Shown here in pieces: positions 7,185-34,969 of a stretch of DNA of 64,000 nt. Within the stretch, counting starts at the first letter, position 1; each line of letters starts with the position of its first letter. The stretch is from Dipteris shenzhenensis (Eukaryota), in the NCBI GenBank assembly GCA_047967505.1, contig CM106538.1. One strand, written 5' to 3'. The notes under the pieces were generated by a model. It searched no databases. It was given only the letters and a program-made list of their open reading frames with translations, and was not told the origin of the DNA. A program made the translations under genes and the position numbers.

Positions 7185-8187
7185 ATTCGTATTCCCTCTC
7201 TTGAGTCTCTCTTCCCTTTTCTTTCTTTCAAAGCCATAAAAGTTCTTTCTATTCGGTCGCTCATTGCACACACATGGTCCATCCATTTCTCGAGCCATCA
7301 AGGGAGTTACTTACCCTATTCTAGGCAAAATCTATGAGTGGTGGATCGTTGATAAAGGTGGAGTCTTGAGGGAGCATCCTGCTCAGGCGAAATTAGAATG
7401 GGTGAAGAGCAGTTTTCATGACAGTTTGACTCCCTGTTAGTCTTTTGCTCATAACTTTCCGCTCGTTAGTCTGATTTTGATGAAACTTATATCAGCGCGA
7501 AGCTCTCTTCAAGGGCATGTCTTTATGTTATTAGACCTTGAATCAGATACTACAGCAAAAAGTTATGAGTCTCTGTGCTTAACAGTTTGTTTTCATGATA
7601 GTTTTTACCCCCATCTAGTAAACCGCCCATAACTTTCTGGCCGCTTCTTTGTTTCTTACAAAATGTATATTAGCGCGAAGCCCATCTCAAGGTGCATCTC
7701 TATATGTGTTTGAATCTTTCATATCATATCTCTACCAAAAGTTATAGGCCTTTGTGTTTAATGATAGTTTGCAGAGTATTTTTAGCTAAGTGTAAAGGTA
7801 TCTATGAAGGAGGTGTAATGTTTCCTCGGAACCTAACCATCCGACCCAATTAGCCCCTTTAAGGTCCTCAATATATATTAGTTCATGTCATGTTGAGCTG
7901 CAAGATCTTCTTTCAACAACGTATCACTCTTCTCTTTGGTGCAAACCGGCTTGCCGAGCTTATGGCCTCTGCTGATCCTTCCCTTCTCCCTATGCTTGAG
8001 TACAACATCACTTGGGATGTTACCATCTTCATTCTCATCTAAGGGAGGAAAGTATGGTGTGGTATCTAGGCATAAATGCTTCTTTTTAATGTCCCTTTCT
8101 CATTGATAAATATCTTTGTCACTCAGTTCAAAAGCAGTACGAAGTGAAGAGGTGCATGAAGTTTATTACCCCCAACTTCATGTCACA
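7185..8187 (+). repeat. Ty3/gypsy-family LTR (solo or 3' LTR; left boundary approximate)
   Basis: Inverted homology to 40454-41450 (e.g. TCTATGAAGGAGGTG...TTCCTCGGAACCTA); ends ...CTTCATGTCACA against a copia fragment. Confidence 0.8.
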
Positions 8188-9468
8188 TTGCCCTTCACAT
8201 ACCTGAGCACCGCATCCCTGCATTCCAATGATTCTCTTGGGCTTATTGGAGAACCTGCTCAAAATGCCAATACCAAAACTGATGTCCGGTCTGGTGTTGC
8301 ACAGATAGATGAGATTGCCGACCAACTTCTTGTACCTCCTGATGTCTATTGGTGGTGAGGCATCCTCCATAGATAGCCTCGCATTTACCTCCATAGGTGT
8401 AGCTATCTCCTTGCATTCGGACATACCAAATGTCTTTAAGATCTCCCTTGCATATTTTTGCTGAGAGATGAAGATCTTGCCTGGCTTAGATTTCAATCCC
8501 CAAACAGTAGTGCATCAAGCCTAAGTCTGTCATCTCAAACTCTGTGCTCAGTGCCTTTCTAGTCTACTGGATCATGTCTTCATAGTCACTTGTAATAAGG
8601 AGATCATCCACATATAGAAAAATAATAGCAGATTTTCCACCTTTTCTGTACACATACAAGTTAGCATCTGAGGCACATCTTTTGAAGTTTAATTTATGAA
8701 AGAATTTGTCTATCCATTAGTACCATGCTCTTGAGGCCTATTTCAGCCCGTACAGAGCCTTCTTCAGCTTACATACCTTGTTCTCAGAATGGGGGGCCTC
8801 AAACCGAGGTGGCTAAGCCACATACACCTCCTCCTTGATGTCACCATTCAAGAATGCTCATTTAACATCCATTTGATAAACTGGCCACTTTTTATGAGTA
8901 GGCACCGATAGTACTGTGCGAATAGTGGTCATTCTGGTAGTTGGAGCGAAAGATTCCTGAAAACCAAACCCTTCAACATGCGAAAATCCTTATGCAACCA
9001 ATCTGGCTTTGTACTTGCGAAAGTCCCATCGGCCTTGTACTTTACCTTCCAAACCCACTTGGTGCCAATAACCTTTCTGTTAGGTGGTCGATCTACCAGC
9101 TCCCAAGTTTCATTCTTCATGATGCTATCATATTCTACTTGCATAGCATTTTTCCAATCTCGGTCTGCAAGTGCTTCCTCCAAACTCGCAAGCTCCTTTA
9201 CTTCTACAATAATCTCAATCATCAAGGCCATATTGACTATGTGAGCAGAAGCCCTCCTTTGCTCCTTGATTCTCTGAGACCGCCTTGGTCCATCTGCATG
9301 CTGCTCAACAGACATAGGCATCTGGTTATCATGGTCATAGAGCTGCCTTACCCATCGTGGCAATGGCTTTTCTGGTGGTGTAACAATAGGTTAGTGACTT
9401 ATACCTTCAATTGGGTATTTCCTCCTCCTTTATAGCTCCTGGGATAGGTCCATAGTGAATTACCTCTT
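8188..9468 (-). mobile_element. Copia family 2 RT fragment
   Basis: [25 protein letters not shown] and LIYLCNTRPDISF; closely similar to about 53090-54380. Confidence 0.93.
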
Positions 9469-12400
9469 GCACAATACTTTTCCTATGCCTTAACCTAGGT
9501 GGTATTGAAATGTTCTCAAAGAGGCACACCCATCCGATAAGTACTTGGTTAGATAACATACCTAAGGGCGTGTTTTTTTGCGGATGTGCATATCACTACG
9601 GGAAAAACATTGTATAATGCATAATCGACCATGCAGAGCATATCTGATGGTGACAATACTTTGCACGCATCTCCACCTAGTTGAAACGGACTTGCGTGCA
9701 AACTGGAGCCCCCATCCTATGAGTACTTGTTTGATTAACACACTTAGGACCGTGTTTTTTCATGGTTGTGCATGACACTAAGCCAAAAACGGTGTTTTAT
9801 GCTTGATCGACAATGCAAAGCATATCCGATGGGCACAATAGTTTGCACACACCTTCAACTAGGTGGAACTGACTTACATGCAAAGTGGCACACCCATCCC
9901 ATAAGTGATTGATCAGATAACATACCTAGCAACGTGTTTTTTTTACGGATGTGCATGACACTAGAGCAAAAATAGTATTTAATGCTCGATCGACCATGCA
10001 AAGGATATCCGATGGGCACAATACATTTCCTACACTACAACCTAGGTGGTATTGAAATGTTCTCAAAGAGGCACACCCATCCGATAAGTATTTGGTCAGA
10101 TAACACACCTAAGGGCGTGTTTTTTTGTGGATGTGCATATCACTAGGGGAAAAATGGTGTATAATGCGTGATCAACCATGCAAATCATATCCGATGGTGA
10201 TAATACTTTGCACGCACCTCAACGTAGTTGAAACGGACTTGCGTGCAAAGTGGAGCCCCCATCCGATAAGTACTTGTTTGATTAACACACCTAGGACCAT
10301 GTTTTTTCATGGTTGTGCATGACACTAAGGCAAAAACGTTGTTTTATGCTTGATCGACAATGCAAAGCATACCCGATGGGCGCAATACTTTGCACACACC
10401 TTCAACTAGGTGGAATTGACTTACATGCAAAGTGGCACTCCCATCCCATAAGTGCTTGATCAGATAACATACCTAGCAGCGTGTTTTTTTACGGATGTGC
10501 ATGACACTAGAGCAAAAATAGTATTTATTGCTCGATCGATCATGCAAAGGATATCTGATGGGCACAACACTTTCCGATGGGCACAACACTTTTTTTACGC
10601 CTCAACCTAGGTGGTATTGGAATGTTCTCAAAGAGGCACACCCATCTGATAAGTACTTGGTCAGATAACACACCTAAGGGTGTGTTTTTTTGCGGATGTG
10701 CATATCACTCGGGAAAAAATGGTGTATAATGCATGATCGACCATGCAAAGCATATCTAATGGTGACAGTACTTTGCACGCACCTCAACGTAGTTGAAACG
10801 GACTTGTGTGCAAAGTGGAGCCCCCATCCGATAAGTACTTGTTTGAATAACACACCTACGGCCGTGTTTTTATATGGTTGTGCATGACACTAAGGCAAAA
10901 ACGGTGTTTGATGCTTGATCGACAATGCAAAGCATATCCGATGGGAACAATACCCTGCACACACCTTCAACTAGGTGGAATTGACTTACATGCAAAGTGC
11001 CATTCCCATCGCATAAGTACTTGATCAGATAACACACCTAGCAGCGTGTTTTTTTACGATGTGCATGACACTAAGGCAAAAATGGTATTTAATGCTCGAT
11101 CGACCATGCAAAGCATATCCAATGGGCACAATACTTTTCCTATGCCTTAACCTAGGTGGTATTGAAATGTTCTTAATGAGGCACAACCATCCGTTGGTCA
11201 GATAACATACCTAAGGGCATGTTTTTTTGCGGACGTGCATATCACTACATGAAAAATGTTGTATAATGCGTAATCAACCATGTAGAGCATATTTGGTGGA
11301 GCCCCCATCTGATAAGTACTTGTTTGATTAACACACCTAGGACGTGTTTTTTCATGGTTGTGCATGACACTAAGGGAAAAACGGTGTTTTATGCTTAATC
11401 GATAATGCAAAGCATATCCGATGGGTACAATACTTTGCACACACCTTCAACTAGGTGGAATTGATTTGCATGCAAAGTGGCACGCCCATCCCATAAGTAC
11501 TTGATTGGATAACATATCTAGCAGCGTGTTTTTTTACGGATGTGCATGACACTAGAGCAAAAATAGTATTTAATGCTCGATCGACCATGCAAAGGATATC
11601 CGATGGGCACAACACTTTGCCTACACTGCAACCTAGGTGGTATTGAAATGTTCTCAAAGAGGCACACCCATCCGATAAGTACTTGGTGAGATAACACACC
11701 TAAGGGCGTGTTTTTTTGCGGATGTACATATCACTAGGGGAAAAATGGTGTATAATGCGTGATCGACCATGCAAATCATATCCGATGGTGACAATACTTT
11801 GCACGCATCTCCACCTAGTTGAAACGGACTTGCGTGCAAAGTGGAGCCCCCATCCGATAGGTACTTATTCGAATAACACACCTAGGACCATGTTTTTTCA
11901 TGGTTGTGCATGACACTACGGCAAAAACATTGTTTCATGCTTGATCGACAATACAAAGCATATCCGATGGGCACAATACTTTGCACACACCTTCAACCAA
12001 GTGGAATTGACTTACATGCAAAGTGGCACTCCCATCCCATAAGTGCTTGATCGGATAACATACCTAGCAACGTGTTTTTTTACGGATGTGCATGACACTA
12101 GAGCAAAAATAGTATTTAATGCTCGATCGACCATGCAAAGGATATCCAATGGGCACAACACTTTTAGTTCGCCTCAACCTAGGTGGTGTTGAAATGTTCT
12201 GAAAGAGGCACACCCATCCGATAAGTACTTGGTCAGATAACACACCTAAGGGCGTGTTTTTTTGCGGATGTCCATATCACTAGGGAAAAAATGGTGTATA
12301 ATGCGTGATCCACCATGCAAAGCATATCGGATGGTGACAATACTTTGCATGCACCTCAACGTAGTTGAAATGGACTTGCGTGCAAAGTAGAGCCCCCATC

Positions 12401-15400
12401 TGATAAGTACTTGTTTGAATAACACACCTACGGCTGTGTTTTTATATGGTTGTGCATGACACTAAGGCAAAAACAGTGTTTTATGCTTGATCGACAATGC
12501 AAAGCATATCCGATGGGCACAATACTTTGCACACACCTTCAACTAGGTGGAATGGACTTATATGCAAAGTGGCATTCCCATCGCATTAGTACTTGATGTG
12601 CATATCACTAGGGAAAAAACGGTGTATAATGCATGATCGAAAATGCAAAGCATATCCGATGGTGACAATACTTTGCACACACATCAACCTAGTTGAAACG
12701 GAATTGCGTGCAAAGTGGAGCCCCCATCCAATAAGTACTTGTTTGATTAACACACCTAGGACCGTGTTTTTTCATGGTTGTGCATGACACTAAGGCAAAA
12801 ACGATGTTTTATGCTTGATCGACAATGTAGAGCATATCCGATGGGCACAATACTTTGCACACACATTCAACTAGGTGGAATTGACTTACATGCAAAGTGG
12901 CACTCCCATCCCATAAGTGCTTGATCGGATAACATACCTAGCATCGTGTTTTTTTACGGATGTGCATGACACTAGAGCAAAAATAGTATTTAATGCTCGA
13001 TCGACCATGCAAAGGATATCCGATGGGCACAACACTTTTCGTATGCCTCAACCTAGGTGGAATTGAAATGTTCTCAAAGAGGCACACCCATCCGATAAGT
13101 ACTTGGTCAGATAACACACCTAAGGGCGTGTCTTTTTGCGGATGTGCATATCACTAGAGAAAAAATGGTATATAATGCGTGATCGACCATGCAAAGCATA
13201 TCCGATGGTGACAATACTTTGCACACACCTCAACATAGTTGAAACGGACTTGCGTGCAAAGTGGAGCCCCCATCCGATAAGTACTTTTTTGAATAACACA
13301 CCTAGGACCGTGTTTTTTCATGGTTGTGCATGACACTAAGGCAAAAACGGTGTTTTATGCTTGATCGACAATGCAAAGCATATCCGATGGGCACAATACT
13401 TTGCACACATCTTCAACTAGGTGGAATTGACTTACATGCAAAGTGGCACGCCCATCCCATAAGTGCTTGATCGGATAACATACCTAGCGGTGTGTTTTTT
13501 TACGGATGTGCATGACACTAGAGTAAAAATAGTATTTAATGCTCGATCAACCATGCAACGGATATCTGATGGGCACAAAAATTTTTGTATGCCTCAAACT
13601 AGGTGATATTGAAATGTTCTCAAAGAGGCACACCCATCTGATAAGTACTTGGTCAAATAACACACCTAAGGGCGTGTTTTTTTATGAATGTCCATATCAC
13701 TAGGGAAAAAATGGTGTATAATGCGTGATCGACCATGCAAAGCATATCCGATGGTGACAATACTTTGCACGCACCTCAATGTAGATGAAACAAACTTGCG
13801 TGCAAAGTGGAGCCCCCATCCGATAAGTACTTGTTTGAATAACACACCTACGGCCGTGTTTTTATATGGTTGTGCATGACACTAAGCCAAAAACGGTGTT
13901 TTATGCATGATCGACAATGCAAAGCATATCTGATGGGCACAATACTTTGCACACACCTTCAACTAGGTGTAATTGACTTACATGCAAAGTGGCATTCCCA
14001 TCGCATAAGTACTTGATCGGATAACGCACCTAGCAGCGTGTTTTTTTACGGATGTGCATGACACTAAGGCAAAAATGGTATTTAATGCTCGATCGACCAT
14101 GCAAAGCATATCCTATGGGTACAATACCTTTCCTACACCTTAACCTAGGTGGTATTGGAATGTTCTCAAAGAGGCACACCCATCCGATAAGTACTTGGTC
14201 AGATAACATACCTAAGGGCATATTTTTTTCCAGATGTGCATATCACTACGGAAAAAACATTGTATAATGTGTAATCAACGATGCAGAGCATATCCGATGG
14301 TGACAATACTTTGCACGCATCTCAACCTAGTTGAAACAGACTTGCGTGCAAACTGGAGCCCCCATATGATAAGTACTTGTTTGATTAACACACTTAGGAC
14401 CGTGTTTTTTCATGGTTGTGCATGACACTAAGCCAAAAACGGTGTTTTATGCTTGATCGACAGTGTAAAGCATATCTGATGGGAAAAATACTTTGCACAC
14501 ACCTTCAACTAAATGGAATTGACTTATATGCAAAGTGGCGCACCCTTCCCATAAGTGCTTGATCGGATAACATACCTAACAGCGTGTTTTTTTTATGGAT
14601 GTGCATGACACTAGAGCAAAAATAGTATTTAATGCTCAATCGACCATGCAAAGGATATCCAATGGGCACAATACTTTTCCTACACCGCAACCTAGGTGGT
14701 ATTGAAATGTTCTGAAAGAGGCACACCCATCCGTTAAGTACTTGGTCAGATAATACACCTAAGGGCATGTTTTTTTGCGGATGTGCATATCACTAGGGAA
14801 AAAACGGTGTATAATGTGTGATCGACCATGCAAATCATATCTGATGATGACAATACTTTGCACGCACCTCAACGTAGTTGAAACGGACTTGCGTGCAAAG
14901 TGGAGCCCCCATCCGATAAGTACTTGTTTGAGTAACACACTTAGGACCATGTTTTTTCATGGTTGTGCATGACACTAAGGCAAAAACGTTGTTTTATGCT
15001 TGATCGACAATGCAAAGCATATCCGATGGGCACAATACTTTGCACATACCTTCAACTAGGTGGAATTGACTTACATGCAAAGTGGCACTCCCATCCCATA
15101 AGTGCTTGATTGGATGACATACCTAGCAGCGTGTTTTTTAACGGATGTGCATGACACTAGAGTAAAAATAGTATTTATTGCTCGATCGATCGTGCAAAGG
15201 ATATCTAATGGGCACAACACTTTTTGTACACCTCAACCTAGGTGGTATTGGAATTTTCTCAAAGAGGCACACCCATCCGATAAGTACTTGGTCAGATAAC
15301 ACACCTAAGGGCGTGTTTTTTTGCGGATGTGCATATCACTCGTGAAAAGATGGTGTATAATGTGTGATCGACCATACAAAGCATATCCAAAGGTGACAAT

Positions 15401-16295
15401 ACTTTGCACACACCTCAACGTAGTTGAAACAGTCTTGCGTGCAAAGTGGAGCCCCCATCCGATAAGTACTTGTTTGAATAACACACCTAGGGCTGTATTT
15501 TTATATGGTTGTGCATGACACTAAGGCAAAAACAGTGTTTTATGCTTGATCGACAATGCAAAGCATATCCGATGGGCACAATACCTTGCACACACCTTCA
15601 ACTAGGTGGAATTGACTTACATGCAAAGTGGCATTCCCATCGCATAAGTACTTGATCGGATAACACACCTAGCAGCGTGTTTTTTTACGGATGTGCATGA
15701 CACTAAGGCAAAAATGGTATTTAATGCTTGATCGACCATCCAAAGCATATCCGATGGGCACAATACTTTTCCTATGCCTTAACCTAGGTGGTATTGAAAT
15801 GTTCTCAAAGAGGCACACCCATCCGATAAGTACTTGGTCAGATAACATACCTAAGGGCGTGTTTTTTTGCGGATGTGCATATCACTATAGGAAAAACGTT
15901 GTATAATGCGTAATCGACCATGCAGAGCATATCCGATGGTGACAATACTTTGCATGCATCTCCACCTAGTTGAAACGGACTTGCGTGCAAATCAGAGCCC
16001 CCATCCGATGAGTACTTGTTTGATTAACACACTTAGGACCGTGTTTTTTCATGGTTGTGCATGACACTAAGCCAAAAACGGTGTTTTTTGCTTGATCGAC
16101 AATGCAAAGCATATCCGATGGGCACAGTAGTTTGCACACACCTTCAACTAGGTGGAATTGACTTACATGAAAAGTGGCACGCCCATCCCATAAGTGCTTG
16201 ATTGGATAACATACCTAGCAACGTGTTTTTTTATGGATGTGCATGACACTAGAGCAAAAATAGTATTTAATGCTCGATCGACCATGCAAAGGATA
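9469..16295. repeat. Tandem satellite: ~182-bp monomers in 546-bp trimers and ~1640-bp nonamers (~37 monomers)
   Basis: Motif AACCTAGGTGGTATTG (or close variant) recurs at 9492, 10039, 10604, 11149, 11630, 12176, 13050, 13596, 14142, 14689, 15235 and 15781; each unit contains three mutually homologous subunits. Confidence 0.97.
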
Positions 16296-16430
16296 ACCTG
16301 GCATGTCCATTTGATGAGTATTTGATTGGATAACTTCTCCCACCAATAAATTAAGTACTAATTAAAAATTATAATAAATGAGTAGATTATTAAAAAGAGA
16401 CTAATATTTATGTAATTGTTGCTACTGCAG

Positions 16431-19400
16431 CTTGCTTGCGAAGGACTCTCACAAAGGAGATGGCTATAGATTTTGTTCCAGGGATGGATGTGATTTTATG
16501 TAGCAAAAGAGAAGTAGTTGCATTTGCTACAATCCATGATAGTGATCCCAATTCAGTTTGCCACTTTCGAAGACTTGGCGAAGATAAGGTGGCAGTTACT
16601 GTATCAAAGATTCTTAGCGCACATGTTACGCTAAAGTATAAATGTGGAGATATGGAAACACTTGGAGATGTTATGCCCTACAATACATCCAACAAATCAT
16701 TTATAGCATGGGACAAAGATGAGACTTATGCAACAGACATTATCAAGAATACAAAGTGCACCACCTTGGATTTTACTATAGGGGACATTTGCAAATGAGA
16801 TCATTTGCAAATAAGACTGTAGCAGAAGGTGAAGTATTGGGATTTGAACAAGTGGAGCAATGGTCATTTGCATCGATGAGAATTCTAAAAGTCACTGATG
16901 ATGGTATGGTTGATAACATAACATCCTTATGTGATCCCTACTATGAGGTAAGCAAGAATATGAGATGGAGCATGCAATTTTTAAACATGAGAAAGAGGCA
17001 TGTGGTTTTCAATGATAAAGACAAGGTATATTACAATATCAAAGGACCTAAAAAGCGTGCCCATGTGCCAGGCTCTACCACTTCAAATGTGGATGATTTC
17101 AATGTACTCAATTATAGAAGTGACATCTTATCTGGAGTGGATGAGTTCATTGGTTCTGAGAAACAAAATGATTTTAGAAGCGAAGCCTTATCTGGGGTGG
17201 ATGAATTCTTGCATAGTGAGAAGGGCAAAGGTTTCAATAGTGACGTCTTGCCAAGTGTGGATGAGTTCATGCATATTAACAAACCTGGTGTCAATCAAGC
17301 TTGTGGATTTGTGAAAGCCATGCAAGATGTCCCAATGAGTGATGTTCTCTCAGGAGTGGAAGAGTTTCAAGGTTCTCAATACTCTCGTAGAATATTGAAT
17401 TCATTGAATGGTCCTAAGAGTATGTTAAAAATGAGGATGAGATCAACAAAGGATTATTCAATATTTAACTTTGATTGTGATATGGCCAAGGATGCAACGA
17501 CCAATCATGGATGCTTGGTTACAAACAAATGTGAGGAGAAGAAGTGCATAAATACAGATAACAACATGCAGGAGGAATGAAAACGGTCATACATATGCAT
17601 GAAGAGAAAGCGAATCAGGCAAATCCACAAAAGCAACCAAAGAGAAAGAGCGTAATGAAGGAGGAGAACATGTTAAATGCATTGGTATATCTATGTTGCA
17701 AGCAAAGATGTATGCGCTTCATTGATCTTGCAGACATCAGGGAATGTAGAGGACACGTGTGGCAAAGAAGAGGAAGCGAAAGAAATGAATACCTTCTCAC
17801 AAGTCTCTCTTGCTTTCTTCAAAATGGCAATAAAAGGCTAAGTTCAAGACAAAAGGTAAAACCTCTCGTAAATGGAAAAAGGATTTGCAATAAGGCATAT
17901 CGCAATATTACTGGATTATCCCATGGTACATATTGGGATTTAGTCACCAAGGCAAAGGGCGGCAACAAATTTAGCATTCACGGTAATAGAGGAAGGTCCA
18001 AATCAAGAATCTCAACTGTCACGGCAGTAGCAATTTTGCAAGACTTCATACATGAAAATGCTTTACCTTAACCCCATATATCTACCAAACTCCCTAACGG
18101 TGACGCGATCACTGAAATGCACCTTCCAATGGGCTTGACAAAGCTCGAAGTATTTGAGACTATTGCAAAAAAGCAAAGGCAAAGAGGGGATGCCGTAGCT
18201 TCTTCTCATACTTTGTATACTCTTTGGAAGAATAACTTTGGATATGTTAAAATCCCAAGGAGGCAAAAAATGTCAAAGTGCAATGTCTGTGATGATTTAA
18301 AGCGAGCGATTGAGAGTGCAACATGTCCAAATCAAAGGGAATTATACAAAAAAAACCGAAAATCTCATCATGACCTTATTCGACATTCCAAACAAAAATA
18401 TGCATTTTGGAAGGAGCAAGCTATTTCACATCCCAAAGACTACATGTGCCTTATTGTAGATGGCATGGATCAAAATACAACAACATTGCCTCGTTTTGTT
18501 GCCACTCCACCTAAATTACAAGAAAAGCACTTTCTAAAGACACATCTATGTGGAGTGTTAGTGCATGGAATTAAGTTCTTTGTAGATATATGGATTGATT
18601 CCTTGCATCTACATGATACCAATCAAGTTGTAACATCTATTATGAAGGCAATTCGCAATGTACATGCAGAAAAAGGTCGCCTACCACCGACTTTGAGAAT
18701 ACAAGCTGATAATTGCTGGCGAGAAAATAAGAATGTACTCATGTTTGCATTCTGCTCCATGCTAGTTGCTCATCAAATCTTCAATGAGGTCGAATGTGGA
18801 TTTTTGTATGTTGGGCATACACATGAGGATATCGATCAGGTTTTTAGCACAGTCTCAAGGGAGCTTAAATGCAAGGATGTGGAGACAATAAATGACTTGG
18901 TAAGAAGATGTGGCAGGCAAGTTGGTGGTCGTAAGGAAAGTACAGTATGTGAGAGGCTCGAAAGAATGTATGATTGGAAGAGCTTCATTCTACCTTTCAT
19001 ACAAATGGGTGGTGATGCATTGACAGGTCATACCAATCCACACTACTTTCGTTTTTTTTTAAAAGATGAAAAACTCGTAATGTAATGGCAACAGTATTCT
19101 CATGATACAAAATGGGAACCTGAAGAACCTTACAGTCTCTTAACTTCAATTCCCAGCAAGGAAAGGTATCCAACATGGGCTCCTATACAAGAATTCAATG
19201 AGAGGTCTAACTGTGAAATAGAAGGCCTAAAAGCATTTATTACATACAAAGAGGAAATGCTCCGGAGATATCCTGATTTGAAGCCTACTTGGAGAACACT
19301 ACCACTATAATTAACAAGACATGAAATTAAATAAAGGACCTTGAGAGAATGCGAGGCTCAAAGGATGTCAAGGAAGAATGCAATATGTTTTGGCCAAATG

Positions 19401-19924
19401 TTCATAACGATTTGCGCCCAGCTCCAGTCTTTGAAAATGAATTTGTATCATTACTCCCACGTCCATATTGTGGACTGAAGAAGAGAGAGTTTATGCCACA
19501 ACTAGATATAGAGGTCGATTGTTTTGTTGTGGTTCGGCCATCGGATGATGGATATGAGAATGTGAAGTTTTGGGTTGCAAAAGTAGTTGATGTGCAAAGA
19601 GATGACCAAGGGAGAGCTACAACATTTACAGCGGTATGGTATGAGCCAAAGGGCAGGAAGGAGAATATGGATAACAACACATTGTATACTAATTGTATAA
19701 TGAAGGAGTGGGTCCCAAATGATGAAGCGGTCTCTCAAGTTTTGACGGAGACAATCATAGTGTCTTGGCATTCAAGGGCAAAGAAATCAAAGAAGCGCAT
19801 GGGATATGAAGTAGAAGGAAAAATAAAAATACCACAGCAAACTATTTTGCATATACATGAATTTTTAAGGATGCTCGCCATGGAGGAAGTAGAAGGAGAC
19901 AGCGCAAATGAAGAATGTCCATGA
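16431..19924 (+). pseudogene. Sola1-like (DUF7869-type) DDD transposase, frameshifted; ~1150 aa when stitched
   Basis: Motifs KCNVC, LIVDGMDQN, QADNCWRENKN and FLYVGHTHEDIDQ. Consecutive ORFs 16436-16798, 16756-17580, 17577-18071, 18117-19085 and 19349-19924. Acceptor-like CTACTGCAG ends at 16430. Confidence 0.8.
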
Positions 19925-20039
19925 TTAAAGCTTTGTATTGTAGTCCATTGAAGGATTTTATTTGGGTACTAGGCAAGAAGCCAATCCAAGACAATTATAA
20001 TCAGAGTCATCACATCCTATGTCAAATGAGAGTCAAAAT

Positions 20040-20445
20040 ATGCACTGGATGTCACCCAAGGGTCAAGGATTGCCAAGACAATAGGGAGTTAATGCAGATG
20101 GCACCTAGCAAGGGACTATCACATTCAGCAATAAGACAATGGGGAGCCAATGCACCCAAGGGGCAAGGCTTGGCAAGACAAGTGGAAGTTAATGCAAATG
20201 GCACCTGTATTTTGCACTGGATGTCACCCAAGGGTCAAGGCTTGGTAAGACAATAGGGAGTTAATGCAGATGGCACTTGACAAGGGACTATCGCATTGAG
20301 CAATAAGACAATGGGGAGTCAATGCACCTAAGGGGCAAGGCTTGGCAAGACAAGTGGGAGTCAAATTATGCAGATGGCACCTAGCAAGGGACTGTCATGA
20401 CATTGAGCAATAAGACAATGGGGAGTCAAATTATGCAGATGGCAC
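20040..20445. repeat. Modular tandem repeat downstream of the transposase
   Basis: Repeated modules AAGACAATGGGGAGT, TAATGCAGATGGCACC and CAAGGGGCAAGGCTTGGCAAGAC. Confidence 0.85.
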
Positions 20446-21179
20446 GAATTGAGGCTCTTTAAGAGCAACAATTTAAATTGTAAACATATGTTTAATCTAT
20501 ATCATTTTGGATATAAAGACTCTAGCTGAGAGCAACGTCTCTCAATATAATCATATAATAATAGCTATAATTGCTATTATACCTCTTTGGTTCAATACAA
20601 AAGTTGGGTCTTATGGCATCATGTCTTTTTTGTATTTATTAAAAGTTTTAAAAATTTTGTGCATATTGCGAGTGACAATGTTATTTTCATGAAATATTTA
20701 AGTCTCCTTTCATGGATTTATAAATTTATCACATCAAGGAAAAATATTAAAAATAATTAAATTAACAAATAACTTAGATATAGCTAGAATTTCTAATATA
20801 GGATTATTTCAAATTCTTGCATGTTGGTGCAAAAGTATAGATTGAAAAAATAATATTTTTATGTGAATATGATAGTGCCACAAAGTGAATTTTTGATTTG
20901 GGAAGAATATTTTCAGAAAGTAAAATTTTGATTTGGGAAGGATATTTTCACAAAGTAAAGTTTTCATTTGGGAAGGATTTTTGGGCTTCATCCAAAAACA
21001 ACAGAAAAAGTCCAAAATTAATGAAATAGGTGTTCATTGTAGATGTTGGGCTCATCTACAGAAATAAGAGGATCGGAAAGGGTAGGGGCAGGGTCAGGGC
21101 TTGAGGTCGAGGCCTCCTCTTCCACTTGTCCCTCCTGGAGAAGGAAAATAAAGGTCATTTCCTAGGATAGGAACCTATT

Positions 21180-21541
21180 TCATGTGTATCCGATGACTCC
21201 ACATGCTAGGAGGTCATCAGTGTCCACCTCCCTAAACCCTAGGGGTGTGAGCTGGGCTCGAAAGCGATCTAAACGCTTCACGAACCTAGGTTCTTGATTG
21301 AACAAGTACTTCAAATAATCAATTGGGACCCATCTTTTTGTAGACTCATCAAGTTGATATGCAAAACTCGCGATGTAGTCTTGCATGTACTTGATGAGGT
21401 CTTCAAAATCTCATCTCGGGCTCCCAAGTAGGTGCCTAGGACATCTATGCTCTTATCAAAGACTAGAAATAACTCCTCCTCTCTATCAATTAATGGAGTA
21501 CAGGAGATGAAACCGTGGAAGGCAGACCTAGTAGAATCCAT
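21180..21541 (-). pseudogene. Small orphan ORF with one frameshift, possible transposon cargo
   Basis: Overlapping ORFs 21311-21541 and 21180-21386 read as one globular-looking peptide; TATATATA about 70 bp upstream on the - strand. Confidence 0.45.
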
Positions 21542-21774
21542 GGTAGTTTGGTAGCTAGGAGAACTATGGCTATGATAGTGAAACTTTGAAACTAAAGTAA
21601 CTTGATAACCTATATATACCCAAATGTTCTAAATATAAAAAATATAAAGAATTATAAATTTTTTGGAAAAAACTTGACATTGACATGAAACAAAACCATT
21701 CAAAACATCAAAATTAATTGCACCACTATTAATTGGAAAATGTCAAAATCCACAATTGTTCCATCCCACATTTT

Positions 21775-23053
21775 CTAAACAATCTTCAATATTGCAGGAG
21801 GGATAAAAGTGGCACTATGCACGAGCTTCTCTGCACGCTTTCCTACCTTTTCACCATTTAAGGTAAAGTGAAAGGACTCAGACATGCCACCCTCCATGAC
21901 CAATAGGTGTTCCCGCACGTCCCTGAAAGTCCACTATGATGTGACAGTCACATTCTTAACATCTCCTAAATGAGAACCAATACATAAACTTACCCCTATA
22001 TTATCATCATCGTTAGAGTCAAGTGGGAGCCAATTGTCACCTGTTTTCTTCCAGTGCCTATATTGGAAAGCAAAATCTAACATTTGGTGGGAGATGTGGT
22101 ACTTGACAACCACATTGTCCTTACATACATGGCATTGAAACAGATCACCCTTTTGTTCACTTGACTTGCTTCCCCAATTCACCCCAAGCAATTCCTCAAG
22201 GGCATTCTCATGTAGGCACTTGCATGACCACATGGTTTTTGTTCTGTGCATCTGGAGATTATGAAAACAAGAAGCAAAAATGTGCAGAGGCATAAACCAA
22301 GACAACCTTACCCATTTAGAGCCAAATGTAAACTTCATGGCCATGCCCACATCCTTTGCAATCTTTTCCTTGTGTATGACTGCATTGTTCTTGTGTCCAC
22401 CATGCTGCAATCCATGTCTTCAAGTTGTGGTGTTGCAATGCATTAAAGATGGCCATAGCCTGATGCCGTCCTTGGAGTAATGTACTTGGCATTATACCAA
22501 TAGATATTTCTCTGTTTCAAAGCAGAGGACTTCTCTCCAGCATGCATTTGTCTTCTTAAATCCTCATGAATGGTAGTAAACTTACCTAAGAAGCACTCCA
22601 CTGGTTTCCACTTCTCAAAGTCTGAAGGAAATACACCTACTATGCACAAGTGCTATTTCAAAATACAATTTCAAACTGACTCATTACACTGGTTCTATTT
22701 CAAAATACAATTTCAAGCTGACTCATTACACTTCAAAATCTTACACAAAATGCAGAATTACAATGCGATGGTATTGTCGATTGATTGCTTGATGGAGGAA
22801 GGTGTATGTCCTTCCCCATGTAGATGTGTTGCACCTTTGCAAGCAATCCTTTCTTCCCAAGCTTGAACTTCATGATGCGGCCCTTCTATTCATGCAAAAG
22901 ATCACCTCTTTTGCTCTTGGGAACCTTATGTGGACCCTTGGCAGACCCTCTCATGACTATCCAATCATTCAAGCTATAGGTGCAAGGCATCCATTCACCC
23001 AGTACATTTTTGCTCCTGTGGGAGACAGAGTACATGTATGGTCTCCTCACCAT
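21775..23053 (-). pseudogene. Decayed gene with putative BAH-like N-terminal domain and ubiquitin-like C-terminal domain
   Basis: Stitched translation YSLNDWIVM...E*KGRIMKF...AKVQHIY [intron ~22637-22750] VFPSDFEKWKPVECFLGKFTTIH...IYWYNAKY; C-terminus VSLCIG..KNVTVTS*WTFRDVREHLL..FHFTLNGEKV..ILKIV*. Confidence 0.5.
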
Positions 23054-23178
23054 GCTTGTACAGAGGTCACAACAGCAATAGTGGACTAGAAAGTGCAGCT
23101 TGGAGGGAGAGAGCAACTTCGATAGAAAGAGAGAGAGGGAGAAGGTATAGAGGGTGTAATCGAAGCTTGAGAGAAGCT

Positions 23179-23420
23179 CCAAGAGGTACTGTAGCAAGGA
23201 ATGGAGGGAGAAAGAGTAGAGGGGGATGAGCAGCTGCTCCAGGAGGTGTTGTAGCTAGGAATGGAGGGAGAAAGAGCAGACGGGGATGAGCAGCCACTAC
23301 AGGAGGTACTATAGCTAGGAATGGAGGAAGAAAGAGCAGAGGGAGATGAGCAGCTGCTGCTGTAGGAGGTGCTGTAGCTAGGAGTGGAGAGAGAATGAGT
23401 AGCTGCTAGAGGAGGTGCTG
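23179..23420. repeat. ~60-bp minisatellite, about 4 copies
   Basis: GGAGGT..TGTAGCTAGGAATGGAGGGAGAAAGAGCAGA.GGGGATGAGCAGC repeated with a 60-bp period. Confidence 0.9.
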
Positions 23421-25001: not shown

Positions 25002-26783
25002 TCAATCAACGTGACACAAGGCGACGTCGAAAGCATGCCAATGCGCTTGGACGAGAGGGGCGCATTCCTCAGGCGACGCCCGCAGCCACGAGAACTCCTT
25101 TCCATGCAGATGCCCCTGCCTCAGCTGCCCCAGAAATCGCGAGAACAGGAGCTGCTGCGTGGTAGCGGGCAAGCGCAAGCTCTCGTAGCGAGCGAGGGCA
25201 GCAAAAAGCCCCTCCTTATCCAAACAAAAATCTGCAGTGGTCGTTGAAGACGATGAAGGCGCTGTTGTGCTGATTTTGGCAGCGAGCGCCTCATCAAAAG
25301 AAGAAGAAGAAGTCGTTGTTGTAATAATAGTAGCAGATGAAGCAGCTCCGGCACTGTCCTTGGCTATGGCGGAATCTATAGAAGCTCCACAGGCCTTGGC
25401 TGTGGCGCATGAATTAGCTCCTTCCCGCTTCTTGTTTATGGCGGCGAGACAGTTCGATAGCGTCACCGCGTCCATTATCGACATGTTCGTGCTCCTCGCT
25501 GCGTGTGGCGTCGTGGGATGCGCTGCCTCTCCCAAGAGCACCACCCTTCCCCACACCATCTTCTTCAATGGCTCCCTGTCGCAGATCGCCTGCAGAAATG
25601 GCGATGGCGTCGCCCTCAGCAAAGCTGCCATCTCTGGTGTCAGCTCCTCCTCCGCCTTGGCAATGGCTTCCTCCCCCGCCCTTGTCGTCAACGAGCTTCC
25701 CTGCTTGCAGCACAACCATATCATATCTGATCAGCAACACATGACCCCTCTCTCCTGATCGAATTATCAATCTGCGCCACGGCCGATTCCTCATCTGTAC
25801 CTTGAAGGTTGGTTCCGGCTGATTGACATACCACAGCCAGTTCAACCTTCCTCCTGGTATCTCGAACACGGCAGAGTGAGACTCCCCCGTCATCTCCACG
25901 TAGACTGTGTCCCCCAGGTTGGGATATCGCTTCCGCATCGCCATTAAGACCTCCTTGCTACCTTCCGCTGCTCTATCCACTACACCTCTCCAGGCGGAGT
26001 ACCCCGAATACCTGCATCAAGAGCAATCCGCCGTCTAGGGCGAAGGGAAAAGGCGACCAATCAAGTTTCACCATGTTCAATCCCATTTACAAACCTTCGC
26101 CTTTCCTCGGGGTCGAAGTGTGCCCGAATTCGTGAATTGCACCCATCTGCAGCAACCAGCAAATTCCCTTCGAATTCAATCGCGTCCCCTGTCTCGATCT
26201 GTCTCACCACGACTTTAACTTCCTTCCCACCCTTGATCTCCTCGAACGCTACCACTTCGTGACCCCAGCGCACGATGCCCTTGGGTAACGCATCGTATAG
26301 AAACTTCTGCAGATCACTCCAATGTAGAGCTTTGGTATTATGGAAGGGATTCACTACCAGAGTATGCAAGGACTTTGTTCTCCTTTCCACTGCCCGATTC
26401 TGCAAATGACAAAACAGTTTTTGAATCCGTTCGGTCATGAGATAGGGCACATTCCGAATTCTAGTCCATCAGCAATTTAAGGAGATTGATATCTCAAATC
26501 AAACCTCTTCCACGGCAAGGGGAATCGCATGCTGTAGAAGAGCGTCACCAAAACCCCACTCGCGCAACGCAGGGCAGCATTCTACTTCGTCCAAAACAAG
26601 CCCGGCCCCCAAGGGAGCCACAGTTCTGGCTTTCTCGAACACCACGACGCTACAGCCAGCTCGGAGGAGCCCGTGAGCGCAGCTGAGGCCTCCAATGCTG
26701 CCGCCCACGACGAGCACGCTGAGTTTGCTCGAACTGGTGTTCATGTGATGAGAGGGATTGAAGCTGCCGTTAAGCAACTCCAT
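25002..26783 (-). CDS. FAD-dependent (group A) aromatic monooxygenase, 2,6-dihydroxypyridine hydroxylase/PhzS-like; exons 26783-26505, 26399-26095, 26011-25801, 25700-25002 (497 aa)
   Basis: VVGGSIGGL (GxGxxG-type), LVAADG, RYSGYSAWRG, RLNWLWY and LLGEAAHPTTPH...NMSIMDA. Three GT-AG introns of 105, 83 and 100 bp give an uninterrupted 1494-nt frame. Confidence 0.93.
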
Positions 26784-27128
26784 CACGAACCCTTCGTCGA
26801 GCAGGAAACTGCAGCAGGAATTAGTGCCGACTAATCCTAATGCTTTCTGGCTTGTAGATCCTTGTGCAGCAGGGCAGCTATGGTAGAGAGGGAGGTGAAA
26901 GATCCAAAGAAAGGGAAAGTTGGAAGATGCGCCACACAGAAAAGTTTTGGTGACGACGATGACGATGATCTAAGTGTGGGTACACACGCCTGCCGCGTGG
27001 GGTGGTGTCCTTCACACACAGGGTGGTCAGGGTCATAAACCAGAATAAGCCACATACTATGATGTTAATGGCTAAACAAAATTTAAAACAAGGTGTCAAT
27101 GACACATAAGCCCTCCAAATGGAAGTTT

Positions 27129-30100
27129 TTAGAAATTGAGGTTGTATTTTCTTGATATTTTATACCGAAATATATGTAAGAGAGTGGTCTGACGAGTAGA
27201 GTTTGTATTTTCAATTGGAATGTTTGTCCATATTATGTGATCCAATGTAGTTCCATATATTGTTGTTGGCACTTGAATAGGCATTTTGAAATTGTATTTT
27301 TGCATAACATTATTTAGGGGTGATGTTTTAATGTTCATATCGATGTTAAAGTCACCCACTTGTTACGATCTAGTATATCTTCCAACATGCTTAAAAATGT
27401 GTTTATTATTGTGGTTGGTGGTTTGTAAATTACTACAATTAAGTAGTCTTGATTTGATTTGTTAATAAGAGCTTCTATGATTTCGATTCCATTGTTTTGG
27501 TTTTTTAGTTGTTCTTTCAAATGAGTGGTGTTGTTTAATAATACACACGTCCACATGATGAGAAGATGTGTAATGATTTGAATGTGTTGAATGCTAGTGC
27601 ATCAAATTGTTTAGTTCTAGTTTCTTGTAAGCATAGGACCTCACATTTCATAAGTTGCTCTGTGTTTTCTATGTCAAGCTTGTATTTTTGAAGTGATCTT
27701 GTGTTTAAAGATTGGATGTTTATGTTGAAATCAAATTTGGGTTTGTTCTCTTCTTTTAGTGTGTGCCATCTTTTTGTTGTATTAAGTCTTTCCATTTCTT
27801 GTTGAACACCTTTTTCCACGTGAAAGTTTTCATGTTTAGTTGGTTCTAGCAAGTAAAGGTTTTCTATTTTTTTGACCCTTGATATTGTGGTGTAAGCTAA
27901 TCCATGGCCTCTAACTTTCCAAGGGGAGAAGGCTAAACGATCCATTGTGAGACCTTGTGATCTATGTGCAGCAGCTGGTTGAATTGGAAATTGCTCTCTT
28001 ATTAGAATTCTTGTTTTTTAAGGACCTATTTGGACTTCCTTTGTAATTCGATATATTGGTGTCCAACTGGGGTCTATTTCTTTTGTGTAAGCTTCTTTGT
28101 TCTTGTTTCTTGCTTTCTTTCCTTCTTTGTTACATTCAAACTTTATTTAGACTATGTCTTTTTGATTTATTATAGTCATTCTTAGAAGACTCCATCTGCT
28201 CCATTAACAAGGCCATCATCTTGATCTAGGTTTCCTGAACATAGTTCTAAAAGCATTCCTTTCTTGATTTGTATATTTGTTCTCAGGCCATCAATTGCCT
28301 TAGGATCGTCCATTATTTTTTTGTTTTTGCAAGCGGACTCGCTAAAATTATCGATTGCTGTTAGGGTGTATATTGTGCCTTGTCCAATTTGGAGTATTGA
28401 TTCATTGTATGCATTAATTTGTAGGTTTGTATAGAACAAGTGTGGGAATGTGTGGTCTTGTGGTGGTTGTTGAAAACATTTTTCATTTATATAGTCTATT
28501 TGATGTTGAGTGTGTGTGCACATTCTAAAAGAATTTAAAGTATTTATGAAATTGTTGTCATTTTGCCTCATTGTTTTTTTCAATTCATAGCGTTGTATTT
28601 TGGTTGTCCAGTATGTGTTACCTAAGCTCTCTAGGGTATCGACACCCATGCATCTTTCATAGGTTTGGCTTGGTAAAAATCTCCACATGTAATGATGTCC
28701 ACATCTCCAAATAGTCCTCATAATTGTGGTTTAATGCTCTCATTCGTAGATTTGCAAAATTCATTATGCGTCTTCCTACGAGAGAAATTTTATCAAATAT
28801 GAGAAGTTGAACTTGTTTGTAAAGGTTTGATAATATGTCTAGTTTTTCTCAAGAGAGAGATGTTAATTCTTTGCTATAGAGTGGAAGGTGTAATGCTCTG
28901 TGTATTATTATACCATTGATGTGTTGTGCCGCCTTGCCGGTGTATGCAAGTAAAAGTGTTTTGGGTAAATTGATGTCATTTGCTATAATGATTTCATTCT
29001 AGTGCAGCCTTGAACGATCAATAGTAGAAGATATATTTTTCTTATACCTGCACCACCTATAAGAAAGAAGTTTATTTTTTCTTGAGGTTGAACCCATTTT
29101 CATAGAAGGATGTCATCAAATATATCTCTTTGGTCTTTGTTACCTAAGCTCTCCAAAGTATGGTTGCGATCCTTGAAAACCCACGCATCTTTCATAGGTT
29201 TGGCTTGGTAAAAATATCCACATGTAATGATGTCCATATCTCCAAAATAGTCCTCATAATTGTGCTTTACTGCTCTCACTCGAAGATCTGCAAAATTCAT
29301 TGTGCATCTTCCTATGAGAGAAATTTCATCAAATACGAGAAGTTGAACTTGTTTGTAAAGGTTTGATAATATGTCTAGTTTTTCTCAAGAGAGATGCTAA
29401 TTCTTTGAGCTATGGACTGGAAAGTGTAATGTTGAGTGTATTGTTATACCATTGATGTGTTGTGTCGCCTTGCCAATGTATGCAAGTAAAAGTGCTTTGG
29501 GTAAATTGATGTCATTTGATATAATGATTTCATTGTAGTGCTTAAGCATGCCTTGAACAATCAATAGTAGAAGATATGTTTTTTTGGTACCTGCACCACC
29601 TGTAAGTGGTGGCATATCTAAGCCAATATCATAAGTGTTGTTTTTATGTCTTTGCATGTGGGCATTTGAATTCATCTGTTGATTCAATGAAATCTCATGA
29701 TTTACTTGAATTTATCATTTCTCCTTCAATTATCCAATCCTCTTTCTATGCACAAAGCTTATAACTCATCCATGCAAGAAACTTGACTTTTCCTTAGAGG
29801 GATATATTCTATCATCTCAACTTTGTTTTTTCTTCATAAGGACCTATTCAATCTTGTCAAAGTTCCATCTTGTCAAAATGGTGACCAAATTTTCTTCATT
29901 TTGTAGAGCAAATATTTTTCAATGCAATTTTCAAGCATGTGTTTTGAATCGGTTTGGTTTGGATTTTAGAGTTTTGAATTGGTGGTATATCGCCTACTAC
30001 CTCATTGCTTGCATATTTTTCTAAGTTGCCAGCCCTTCTTAGATCCTCAATGGTAATTCCCTCTTCTAGGATATTGTTGTATTTGAAGTTAAAGTTGTTG

Positions 30101-32320: not shown

Positions 32321-34969
32321 CTATGGGCCCAATTTACGAGAGTTAGATAATATTGGGCCCTCACTCATGGCCTCCTTAAGTTGCTGAAAAGACTCCTGTT
32401 GCTCCATGCCCCATTGGAAAGGAACTCCTTTTCTTGTCAACAAGTTCATGGGATGCACTATCTCTATGAAATCATCACAAAAGCATTGATAATACTTGCT
32501 TTTTCCTAGAATTTTGTGAACACCAATGACACTCTTAGGACTTGGCAATGCCATGATTGCTTGAACCTTGTCAGGATCCATTTGCAAGCCTTCTTCAGAC
32601 ACAATATGCCCCAACAAGAGTACTTTTGTTTGAGCCAAATGACACTTGCTAGGATTTAGACACCCTTTTGCTTCATCAATCCTAGCTAAGGCCATCTCTA
32701 ACTTCTCCATGTGATCTATGCATTGAGAATAAATGCAAAAATCATCCAAAAACTCCCTTATGAACTTTCCCAAGTAAGGCTCAAGGACTTGACTCATGAA
32801 CCTTTGAAATGTAGCCGGTGCATTGGTTAACCCAAAAGGAATGACTCTATAAGCAAGAACTCCCCAAGGTGGCATACCTTCTTATCATTTTCCAGCAAAA
32901 TCAATTCTCCAGTATCCCACTTTTGAACAGCCTTCACCTTGCATAGCCAAGGCCTTCCCAAAATCAATGGATAGGCACGTGCATCTGGCTTGGTAGGGAT
33001 CACCTGAAAAGTAGTCGGCATAGAAATTCCACATACATCCACTTCTAGATTCTTCACAACTCCCAAGGTCTTTACCCTAGTGTTGTCAGCCAATTCAAAT
33101 GCAATAAGGAGAGGTAGTACTAGAGTATTATAAATCAGCATCTATCATGGTCTTCTCACTCATGACATTAATCGATGCACCTCCATCAATGTACACATTA
33201 GAAATCACTTGACCATCAATGATCACATGAACCATAGGTACATCATCGCCAACATCTATATCTACCTTTTGAACAACAAGAATGGCACTTTTCTTCTTTT
33301 TCTTCTTTGACACTCTTGTGCTTGCTAGTTTTCCCCATTACTTCCATAGTTTTGGAGACAAAGCAAGTAATTGACCAAAGGTGATATGAGCTTTCTTTTC
33401 TTTAAGGTTGGACAACAAGTCAAAGCTTCCAATTCCTTGTGCTAAAGAAAAGTTTGATTGGCTAATTCTCCTTCTAGATGCTTCTTTTTCTTACTACAAA
33501 GTTCCTCTTCCTGATGTTCCTCATCTACTTCTTCCTTGCTTTCTTCTTCTTCTTTTGCTTTACCATGCACCGTTTAGCCATCATTACATCTCTTTCCTCA
33601 TCCCCTGAAGAAGCATTTAACAAGGATACTTGTTTTTCTTCTTTCTTTCTCACAATCTAGGACAAGGAAGTAGCAAGCTAAGGGTGTCCACTTTTTGTTC
33701 ACTCCCCAATCCTTAGAAGGTGGAAAAACAAGCTTTTTAGCACACAAAAATGCAAATCTCACCTACTTTCCTATGGATCTAGTCTTTGAAGTCTTCAGAC
33801 ACAACATCACACATGCTATTGTGCACACAATCGTATAGTCTGACCAAAAATTTGATGCACACACAAAAAATTTCTTTGTGTCACACGGCATGGTTCCAGG
33901 GTGGTCACACCTTTGTCACGAATAGAGAGTGTCATATTAAATTCTAAATTTCTCACTCATTTTAGATTAAATATTATTGAAACTTTGTAGGTGGTCTCTT
34001 TACATTATGTAGACCTTAACTTGATTTATTGGTAATTTTTTGAATGATTTATCTAATTATAAATAATTATTTATTATAAATAAACTCATGAAATACATGC
34101 ATTTTAGTAGCACACCACATTTTTCTTGTATTTTGAATAATTAAGCAAATCCAATTCGGTGGAAGGTTAGTAGGCACATAAGGGTGTGTGGTTGAATCAT
34201 CAAATCCCAAATCCAACAGTTAGATTTAGGAAGATTGAAGTTTAATTTTTACTTTTACTCCTTAGAGGATCAACAAAGAATATTAAAAATAAATCTAGTA
34301 ATTCTCAAACATGGCCAAACATTTCAAAAATGTCAATATTTTTAGTCCTCCACATAATGAATAAGAGGAAAAAATTTTGGTTAAATTTGAGTAAGGGAAA
34401 CGTACGATATGGCCTCCAAGAGTGAAATCTCCCTTTTGTGGGGGAAAAAGGGCCACCCAAGCCTAATACCAAGACAAGGTAGGCTTGGTATTAGGCTTGG
34501 TGAGGTAGGCTAGGAGCATCACCGACCCTAGTGGCAAGCCTTTGGAGTGTGCATGCTACCCATGCGGAAGGCTGAGTCATCTATTTTTACCTTGCAACCA
34601 TGCCATGTTGTTAGACCGCATGGTGCCATGTCATCAAGGAGATGTGACATCACTCCTTGCCATGTCACCTTACATTGCCACACATGTTGCCACATCAGCC
34701 ACATGTGCCACCTCATCATTCCACATCATAGGAACTCTTGGAGCCATGTCATCACACCTTGCCACCTTGGCATACCTCGTCAACCTTGCCACATTACCAA
34801 TCCCTCCACCTCAATTTGCCATGTCAATCTACCACCTCATGAATGCCAACTCATCATGCCACATCACATTTCCACGTCATGGAAGAGACTCATATATTCC
34901 ACACCATATTGCCACATCATGACCATGCATGGTGCCACATCAGCCACATGTATACACATCACGATGTGC

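Follow-up and report, generated by a model that had tools for sequence, protein, structure and literature searches.

A decayed DUF7869 transposase gene with a C-terminal BAH-like domain beside a 182-bp tandem array in Dipteris shenzhenensis

The window analysed here, a stretch of 64,000 nucleotides from contig CM106538.1 of Dipteris shenzhenensis (assembly GCA_047967505.1), contains between about 9.5 and 23.4 kb a long tandem array that is followed on the plus strand by the remains of one transposase gene and by short direct repeats, and then by an open frame on the minus strand and a minisatellite (Table 1). The transposase joins a DUF7869 catalytic core to a C-terminal BAH-like domain. An initial annotation had described this block as a composite element made of a satellite, a DDD transposase and two cargo genes. 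Its account of a structured 6.8-kb satellite, of a short repeat block and a 60-bp minisatellite on the 3′ side, and of a block free of retroelement sequence agrees with our results, including the finding that Pfam identified no retroelement domain in 16.3–25 kb. In our reading, to which we give an even chance, the block holds a single decayed copy of a DUF7869-family DNA transposon that was autonomous and moved by cut-and-paste.

Table 1. Features of the block, with positions in the window
Feature	Position	Strand	Remarks
Internal copia fragment (reverse transcriptase/integrase region), left breakpoint of the array	8189..9468	-	90.7% identity to 53090-54378; RVT_2 match
182-bp tandem array	9469..16298	+	About 37.5 monomers, 6.83 kb; three-monomer (546-bp) higher-order repeat; Tandem Repeats Finder and per-monomer blast
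A+T-rich stretch, presumed promoter/5′ untranslated region	16299..16459	+	Interval from array to ATG; putative promoter role
Transposase pseudogene	16460..19924	+	One gene, about 1,156 codons read through; broken in the window copy
PF03017 (TNP1/En/Spm, Transposase_23)-like N-terminal domain	16499..16669	+	Sub-threshold Pfam match
10-residue peptide motif, four copies, consensus SDxLSGVDEF	17119..17367	+	Direct repeat family D9
RNase-H-like DDD catalytic core (DUF7869)	18072..19085	+	Pfam, AlphaFold2 model, VIA, conservation
BAH-like beta-barrel, C-terminal domain of the transposase	19478..19900	+	Different frame from the core in the window copy
Short direct repeats (AAGACAATGGGGAG... x6; ATGCAGATGGCAC... 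x4-5)	20041..20445	+	Presumed subterminal repeats; putative role
35-bp repeat, three copies, in A+T-rich tail	20879..20982	+	Tandem Repeats Finder
Open frame, 214 codons, one TAG stop	21778..22419	-	No known family
60-bp minisatellite, 3.7 copies	23176..23399	.	Tandem Repeats Finder; families D2, D3

Four successive open frames are found on the plus strand downstream of the array (16394–16798, 16723–17580, 17562–19310 and 19331–19924), the third of which holds two in-frame TAA stops. They are best explained as a single, intronless gene whose product carries, in this order, a TNP1/En/Spm-like N-terminus, an acidic repeat region, an RNase-H-like DDD core and a C-terminal BAH-like beta-barrel. 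The initial annotation had opened the transposase at a splice acceptor. A CTGCAG is indeed present at 16425–16430, about 132 bp past the array, but an acceptor is unneeded because the first frame is open already at 16394 and offers a start codon, ATG, at 16460. The N-terminal match to PF03017 covers profile positions 8–64 of 66 and stays below threshold (E 0.067, 13.5 bits against a cut-off of 21). In one relative (P0135), PF03017 was identified at 29.6 bits, followed by DUF7869 and then by the C-terminal domain; this is the order seen in the window, and the match in the relative therefore gives more weight to the sub-threshold one. Copies 1–3 of the SDxLSGVDEF motif follow one another at intervals of 20 residues (60 nt), whereas 33 residues lead on to the fourth.

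The window copy of the transposase is dead. It carries nonsense codons at 17578, 18069 and 19083 and frameshifts at 16787, 17615 and 19295, and contigs of other copies, which were obtained from public runs X1 and X2 and placed on the window at 80% likeness, read otherwise. Every contig that covers one of the three nonsense codons has C where the window has the T of the stop. At the three frameshifts, every covering contig has extra letters (1, 1 and 4, respectively) that step the frame from 2 to 1, to 0 and to 2 again, and therefore the four frames of the window are exactly linked. Over 16510–19901, contigs of both runs differ from the window at about 1–2% of letters (16/923, 17/939 and 5/477); copies that are 98% identical to the window copy and lack six of its lesions thus exist elsewhere. 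A second lineage differs at 119 of 713 letters. The family has several diverged members, since 233 of 17,770 X1 records fall on the 13.9-kb stretch and as many as five contigs cover a single site. All public runs in which the stretch was found bear the label "organism A" or "algae metagenome". The depth of X1 (465 in the satellite bin, 59–118 over the gene, about 5 at 21.2–22.1 kb and about 0 beyond 23988) does not give copy numbers, zero cover proves nothing, and these values are not used as support. Differences between window and contigs are mostly transitions, with the window more often having A or T, and both this bias and the low CpG content of the gene fit the decay of a methylated repeat. 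At one of the nonsense codons, CGA has become TGA within a CpG, as expected if a methylated cytosine was deaminated.

The core of the protein has a transposase/integrase fold with a conserved acidic triad, consistent with the DDD transposase proposed initially. It matches Pfam DUF7869 (PF25273) with an E of 7.1e-54 and 182.8 bits, against a curated cut-off of 26. The AlphaFold2 (AF2) model of the core reached a predicted local distance difference test score (pLDDT) of 82.9, with the element order b1-b2-b3-a1-b4-a2-b5-a3, and the acidic residues stand at the canonical RNase-H places: the first closes b1, the second follows b4 and the third opens the helix behind b5. The candidate triad consists of D130 (18459–18461), D213 (18708–18710) and D253/D255 (18828–18836); among the non-gap rows of alignment A3, D130 is conserved in 37 of 38, D213 in 32 of 36, and D253 and D255 each in 33 of 33. 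A CxxC motif is present within the core at 18279–18290. With VIA, the model aligned best with a retroviral integrase of STLV (7ouf_B, Z 10.2, root-mean-square deviation (rmsd) 3.0, 138 aligned), and then with IstA (Z 9.8, rmsd 3.4, 146 aligned) and Mos1 (Z 9.5, rmsd 4.4, 180 aligned), Mos1 and Metnase together scoring 9.5–9.6. The matches cited range from 10.2 to 9.4, and 111 of 1000 chains reached Z ≥ 8. Foldseek alone was weak on the core, with a best E of 1.2e-3.

A near-length search yielded 127 relatives of the transposase. Those that are named come from bivalves, a hydrozoan, sea urchins, corals and amphioxus and are all uncharacterised proteins; the closest relatives (39–55% identical) are without names. 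Among metagenome contigs, 531 of 599 matched stretches encode relatives of the transposase. A literature search found no paper using the term "DUF7869".

The BAH-like ORF (open reading frame) at 19331–19924, which the initial annotation had taken for a separate cargo gene, is the C-terminal part of the transposase and belongs to the same protein, because relatives carry it behind the same core and because the 4-base difference in other copies joins the two frames. Four of 120 near-length relatives gave a second match at 19490–19915, about 100–130 residues after the core match, in a local tblastn against the window. Both 17.7–19.3 kb and 19.49–19.9 kb are matched by 16 of the 43 long relatives (39–45% identical), and ten of these 16 two-part proteins are 1,044–1,070 residues long, near the read-through length of the window gene. 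When 19331–19924 was compared with 1.84 billion representatives, 17 proteins were identified, six of which have DUF7869 upstream of the match; the alignment leaves out two of the 17, a WD40 protein and a repeat protein of 1,709 residues, which look like spurious hits. A point on the other side is that two further stops in frame 2, at 19322 and 19328, were read in the window copy between the 4-base difference and the C-terminal ORF.

It is plausible that this C-terminal domain forms a BAH-like barrel, and the modelled fold may read methyl-lysine. The model, built from 20 aligned sequences, had a pLDDT of 83, with residues 50–190 above 90 (AF2). In Foldseek, rows 1–15 were all BAH proteins, including SHL, polybromo BAH1, DNMT1 BAH1, EBS and Orc1 (E 0.022–0.064). 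A profile of the domain compared with PDB sequences gave SHL at E 0.15 and EBS at E 0.23–0.28, and the HMMER alignment places VVVRPSD...FWVAKV...VWYEPK of the window on VLMRPSD...SYVAKI...VRWYYRPE of SHL. According to passages of a study of plant SHL, the methyl-lysine cage of PtSHL is formed by Tyr41, Trp63 and Tyr65 (PMC6013494); as far as these passages define the cage, Tyr41 is matched by a conserved W/Y (W81 in the window) and Trp63 by the invariant W103, so that two of the three cage positions are also aromatic and conserved here.

Several results weigh against calling this domain a BAH reader. Tyr65, the third cage residue described in those passages, has no certain counterpart and is aligned as an insert beside Y104. 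The Foldseek E values for BAH are only 0.02–0.06, and a larger profile gave no better E (0.24). In VIA, EBS (Z 6.8, rmsd 4.2, 86 aligned) is tied with MazF (Z 6.9), DIM2 (Z 6.6), chromo-barrel and PWWP folds (Z 6–7), and none of the 992 chains aligned to the C-terminal domain reached Z ≥ 8. Pfam BAH had no match at E ≤ 1 among the window proteins. Atlas returned just unnamed eukaryotic clusters for this domain, with scores of 0.90–0.92.

A chromodomain is fused to the integrase in chromoviruses such as MAGGY, and fusions of readers (Chromo, PHD) to integrases or transposases likewise place a small C-terminal reader-like barrel on a DNA-joining enzyme. Unlike the Chromo and PHD of these fusions, the domain described here has a weakly called BAH-like fold and is only a putative reader. 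In passages of a survey of such fusions, the reader domains of mobile elements are mostly Chromo and PHD, and BAH is not among the domains named there as fused to elements (10.1101/2021.11.30.470311). A literature search combining BAH domain, transposase and DNA transposon found no paper with these terms in title or abstract.

Upstream of the gene, Tandem Repeats Finder identified a 182-bp period at 9517–16295, and blast with one monomer set the limits of the array, the first letter of which is monomer position 135 and the last position 129. Monomers of the same type are 86–96% identical and those of other types 74–81% (per-monomer blast). In the 36-copy repeat families each third copy is 88–96% alike, and because every third monomer is the most alike, three monomers (546 bp) appear to be the unit of homogenisation. 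Copies of the monomer are absent from the rest of the window in either orientation. A start at position 135 and an end at position 129 looked like an intact in-situ array, a reading that was rejected because one further, degenerate monomer remnant, which by eye reaches about 16335, puts the array out of register.

On its left side the array ends at a breakpoint of rearrangement within a copia element and not at an insertion boundary. The match of the copia fragment to its relative in the window extends over 1290 bp and stops exactly at 9468, and RVT_2 was identified within it in the ORF at 8929–9390 on the minus strand. A continuation of this copia, sought as proof of insertion, was not found in 19.9–34 kb with blastn or tblastx. 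As the initial annotation had noted, the left end of the unit to which the array belongs is lost.

On the 3′ side, the element likely ends somewhere within about 20.6–21.0 kb. A contig from another copy departs from the window sequence past 20595, and a rearranged joint, 20905/20734, is seen in contigs. The minus-strand frame at 21778–22419, where the initial annotation had placed a ubiquitin-like gene, exists with its stop; it is probably not a gene of the element. Pfam identified no family in this frame and its neighbours, Atlas gave no lead (recognition 1660, best score 0.75), and none of the loci of 80 relatives contains a counterpart of the minus-strand frames. Its only relative is a protein of 113 residues that is 63% identical over 102 residues. 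An X2 contig has unlike sequence to the left of 22067, inside the frame. Further downstream, 22718–23216 is also present in X1 (record 6, 22 differing letters).

Whether the array is part of the element is about evenly balanced. One X1 contig spans the junction between array and gene, from about 54 letters inside the last monomer to at least 83 letters beyond 16327, and because it differs from the window at four sites (16298, 16311, 16321 and 16327) it shows this junction in another copy. From the array remnant to the ATG the distance is only about 125 bp. Among the 29 loci of relatives with more than 1.5 kb upstream, nine (seven distinct) contain tandem repeats on the upstream side of the core.

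These observations have to be set against a number of others. The junction evidence is a single X1 contig, which could be a segmental duplicate and not a transposed copy, and the X2 contig at this place has only 19 letters on the array side. The count of upstream repeats is without a background control, and downstream repeats are also found in five of 30 loci (three distinct). Neither terminal inverted repeats nor a target-site duplication were found around the window element, and the limits of the element and the place of the array inside it are therefore putative. There is no inverted copy of the monomer 3′ of the gene, and array and 3′ block share nothing above chance; the local alignment of the 546-bp unit with 20041–20445 scores 10, a score reached by 169 of 300 dinucleotide shuffles and by 168 of 300 real window segments. 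The CpG observed/expected ratio of the array (0.72) is unlike that of the gene (0.43), which falls to 0.13 in its 3′ part.

Three candidate signals for the limits or the unity of the element were considered and set aside. The motif ATGCA[AG]A[GT]?TGGCAC has seven occurrences in the array and five in the 3′ block, and the rest of the window is free of it; it was found post hoc and is rejected as evidence because the unbiased alignment is at chance. A 10-nt inverted match (16414–16423 and 20464–20473) with AATT at its outer end was a candidate for the termini, yet contigs of other copies continue past 20473 and only 6 nt are left as a repeat. A 1-kb inverted repeat (7186–8188 and 40453–41456) has only 80% identity (89% in a 421-nt core) and is read as two opposite copies of another repeat; it brackets 32 kb that include the whole block.

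The Sola superfamily of eukaryotic DNA transposons, with its Sola1 group, was reportedly described by Bao, Jurka, Kapitonov and Jurka in 2009. The label "Sola1-like", which the initial annotation gave to the transposase, is a putative one. A BAH-like domain is not known to us from any Sola, nor is a long array inside the element. Like the window element, Sola1 encodes one long transposase whose RNase-H-like core holds a DDD triad, and the named relatives come from bivalves, cnidarians, echinoderms and amphioxus, which are groups with reported Sola. Without the array, the window element is about 4.5–5 kb long, and passages of a bivalve study give a mean of 5.4 kb for Sola1 (PMC10294476). The hallmark of Sola1, as stated in passages of another study, is a 4-bp target-site duplication, AWWT (PMC3845634). 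An apparently complete DUF7869 element of 3.7 kb, distantly related to that of the window, was identified on a metagenome contig (L021:437–4139); its 22-nt perfect inverted termini are flanked by AAAA at either end, and it contains two frames, of 228 and 734 codons, that adjoin each other. These termini and flanks indicate that the family does make 4-bp duplications, of the same length as the hallmark given for Sola1 in those passages but not AWWT.

Three near-identical metagenome contigs from different samples (L066, L068 and L074; 1214–12494) carry a DUF7869 core in 11.3 kb bounded by a 30-nt inverted repeat, and the tandem repeats to the left and to the right of this core have the palindromic motif GGCCACCAAAT in common. 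No target duplication was seen in these three contigs. Another contig (L006), with 148-bp repeats on both sides of a truncated core, was dropped as a model of the architecture, as its mixed orientations are too tangled.

Transposable elements (TEs) that carry or seed satellites include Tetris of Drosophila virilis, CACTA elements with subterminal arrays, and the Helitrons and MITEs (miniature transposable elements with inverted repeats) linked to bivalve satellites. The window element likewise has an array with higher-order structure directly beside its coding part and the same junction in another copy. It differs in its transposase family and in the length of the array (6.8 kb, 37.5 monomers) relative to an element body of about 4.5 kb, and the place of the array inside the termini is only putative. 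VANDAL elements, which are Mutator-like elements (MULEs), with their anti-silencing VANC proteins are also DNA transposons with tandem repeats near a gene. In a module of this type, a separate accessory gene encodes a protein that binds to motifs enriched in the repeats of the element itself. In contrast to these, the window element belongs to another transposase family, shows no separate accessory gene among the ORFs in 20.4–25 kb, and has no motif common to the array and its other end above chance.

Overall, the window has the look of a photosynthetic eukaryote's genome that is rich in repeats. Elsewhere in it, pieces of copia-type gag, integrase and reverse transcriptase were identified at 0.7–3.7, 8.9–9.4, 52.5–55.2, 57.3–58.3 and 61–63 kb. 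Four successive open frames at 25002–26969 on the minus strand contain pieces of an FAD-binding monooxygenase (FAD_binding_3, NAD_binding_8) at a G+C content of 0.52–0.56, and look like a captured fragment or a monooxygenase pseudogene that lacks introns and has its frame broken. A piece of RVT_1 reverse transcriptase (E 3e-14) at 32321–32881 on the minus strand belongs to a non-copia retroelement. Two closely spaced pairs of direct repeats (28644–29063 with 29179–29606, and 48310–48977 with 49200–49867) are 89–90% identical.

The most serious competitor to an element with an array of its own, and one that we hold possible though clearly short of an even chance, is that the satellite is host DNA and that the transposon landed in or beside it, perhaps steered to heterochromatin by the BAH-like domain. 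The shared junction would then stem from a segmental duplication of the locus, or a single ancestral insertion would have been copied along with the array. Such a history fits the absence of termini enclosing the array, and the breakpoint inside copia indicates that the region does rearrange. Most contigs with monomers continue as satellite past 16295, and most monomers are therefore not at the junction, while the differing CpG ratios of array, gene and 3′ part suggest different histories. Independent insertions, however, would give differing junctions, and the junction in X1 is at the same place. The short interval between the remnant and the ATG leaves little room for a 5′ terminus and a promoter, and tandem repeats are present upstream of the core in relatives from other organisms too.

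We consider it very unlikely that one transposon extends from 9.5 to 23.4 kb and includes, besides array and transposase, two cargo genes in convergent orientation, one for a BAH reader and one for a ubiquitin-like protein, as an anti-silencing module of the VANC type that acts on the array, which was the full model of the initial annotation. The BAH-like domain is present, the recurrence of 22718–23216 in X1 makes the right part repeated DNA too, and the minus-strand frame does have its one relative. But the BAH-like domain belongs to the transposase, the minus-strand ORFs have neither a Pfam family nor an Atlas lead nor a match in the 80 loci of relatives, and contigs of other copies leave the window sequence after 20595 and before 22067. 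No VANC-like protein was found among the ORFs examined, and no motif is shared by array and 3′ block above chance. What was observed initially is thus partly confirmed and its interpretation partly supported. A transposase with a BAH-like domain adjoins a structured array, and the junction recurs in at least one other copy; separate cargo and an anti-silencing function fall away. Still more improbable, to the point of being hardly credible, is a domesticated transposase-BAH fusion that serves the host. A reader-like domain joined to a transposase core is the architecture of several domesticated genes. Fusions between TEs and readers are surveyed, in the passages cited above, by the same study (10.1101/2021.11.30.470311). 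Domestication is at variance with the at least six disabling lesions of the window copy, with several diverged lineages in one run, with differences dominated by transitions as in decaying methylated repeats, and with the large number of matched metagenome stretches that encode relatives.

If the block is a decayed autonomous transposon with its own array, as we prefer to read it, the 182-bp array would be the 5′ tandem-repeat region of the element, grown to 6.8 kb by unequal exchange, and the repeats at 20041–20445 would be its 3′ subterminal repeats, both serving as putative binding sites for the transposase. The BAH-like barrel might tether the transposase to marked nucleosomes and in this way bias its landing sites. 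The element would end near 20.6–21.0 kb, and the sequence at 21–24 kb would be unrelated repeat debris and not cargo. A more far-reaching proposal, which we regard as unlikely, is that a Sola-like clade, represented in public data by at least 16 relatives of full length, joined its transposase to a BAH-type domain that reads methyl-lysine and in this way directs insertion to marked chromatin, and that it also carries and spreads its own higher-order array, thus acting as a mobile satellite seed.

The locus itself is a dead copy, and its value lies in the family, which seemingly has near-intact members in the same organism. If the barrel reads histone marks, this family would have a BAH-type targeting domain on a DNA transposase. 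If the array is internal to the element, the latter would clearly exemplify a transposon that carries a higher-order satellite, which would bear on the origin and spread of satellites.

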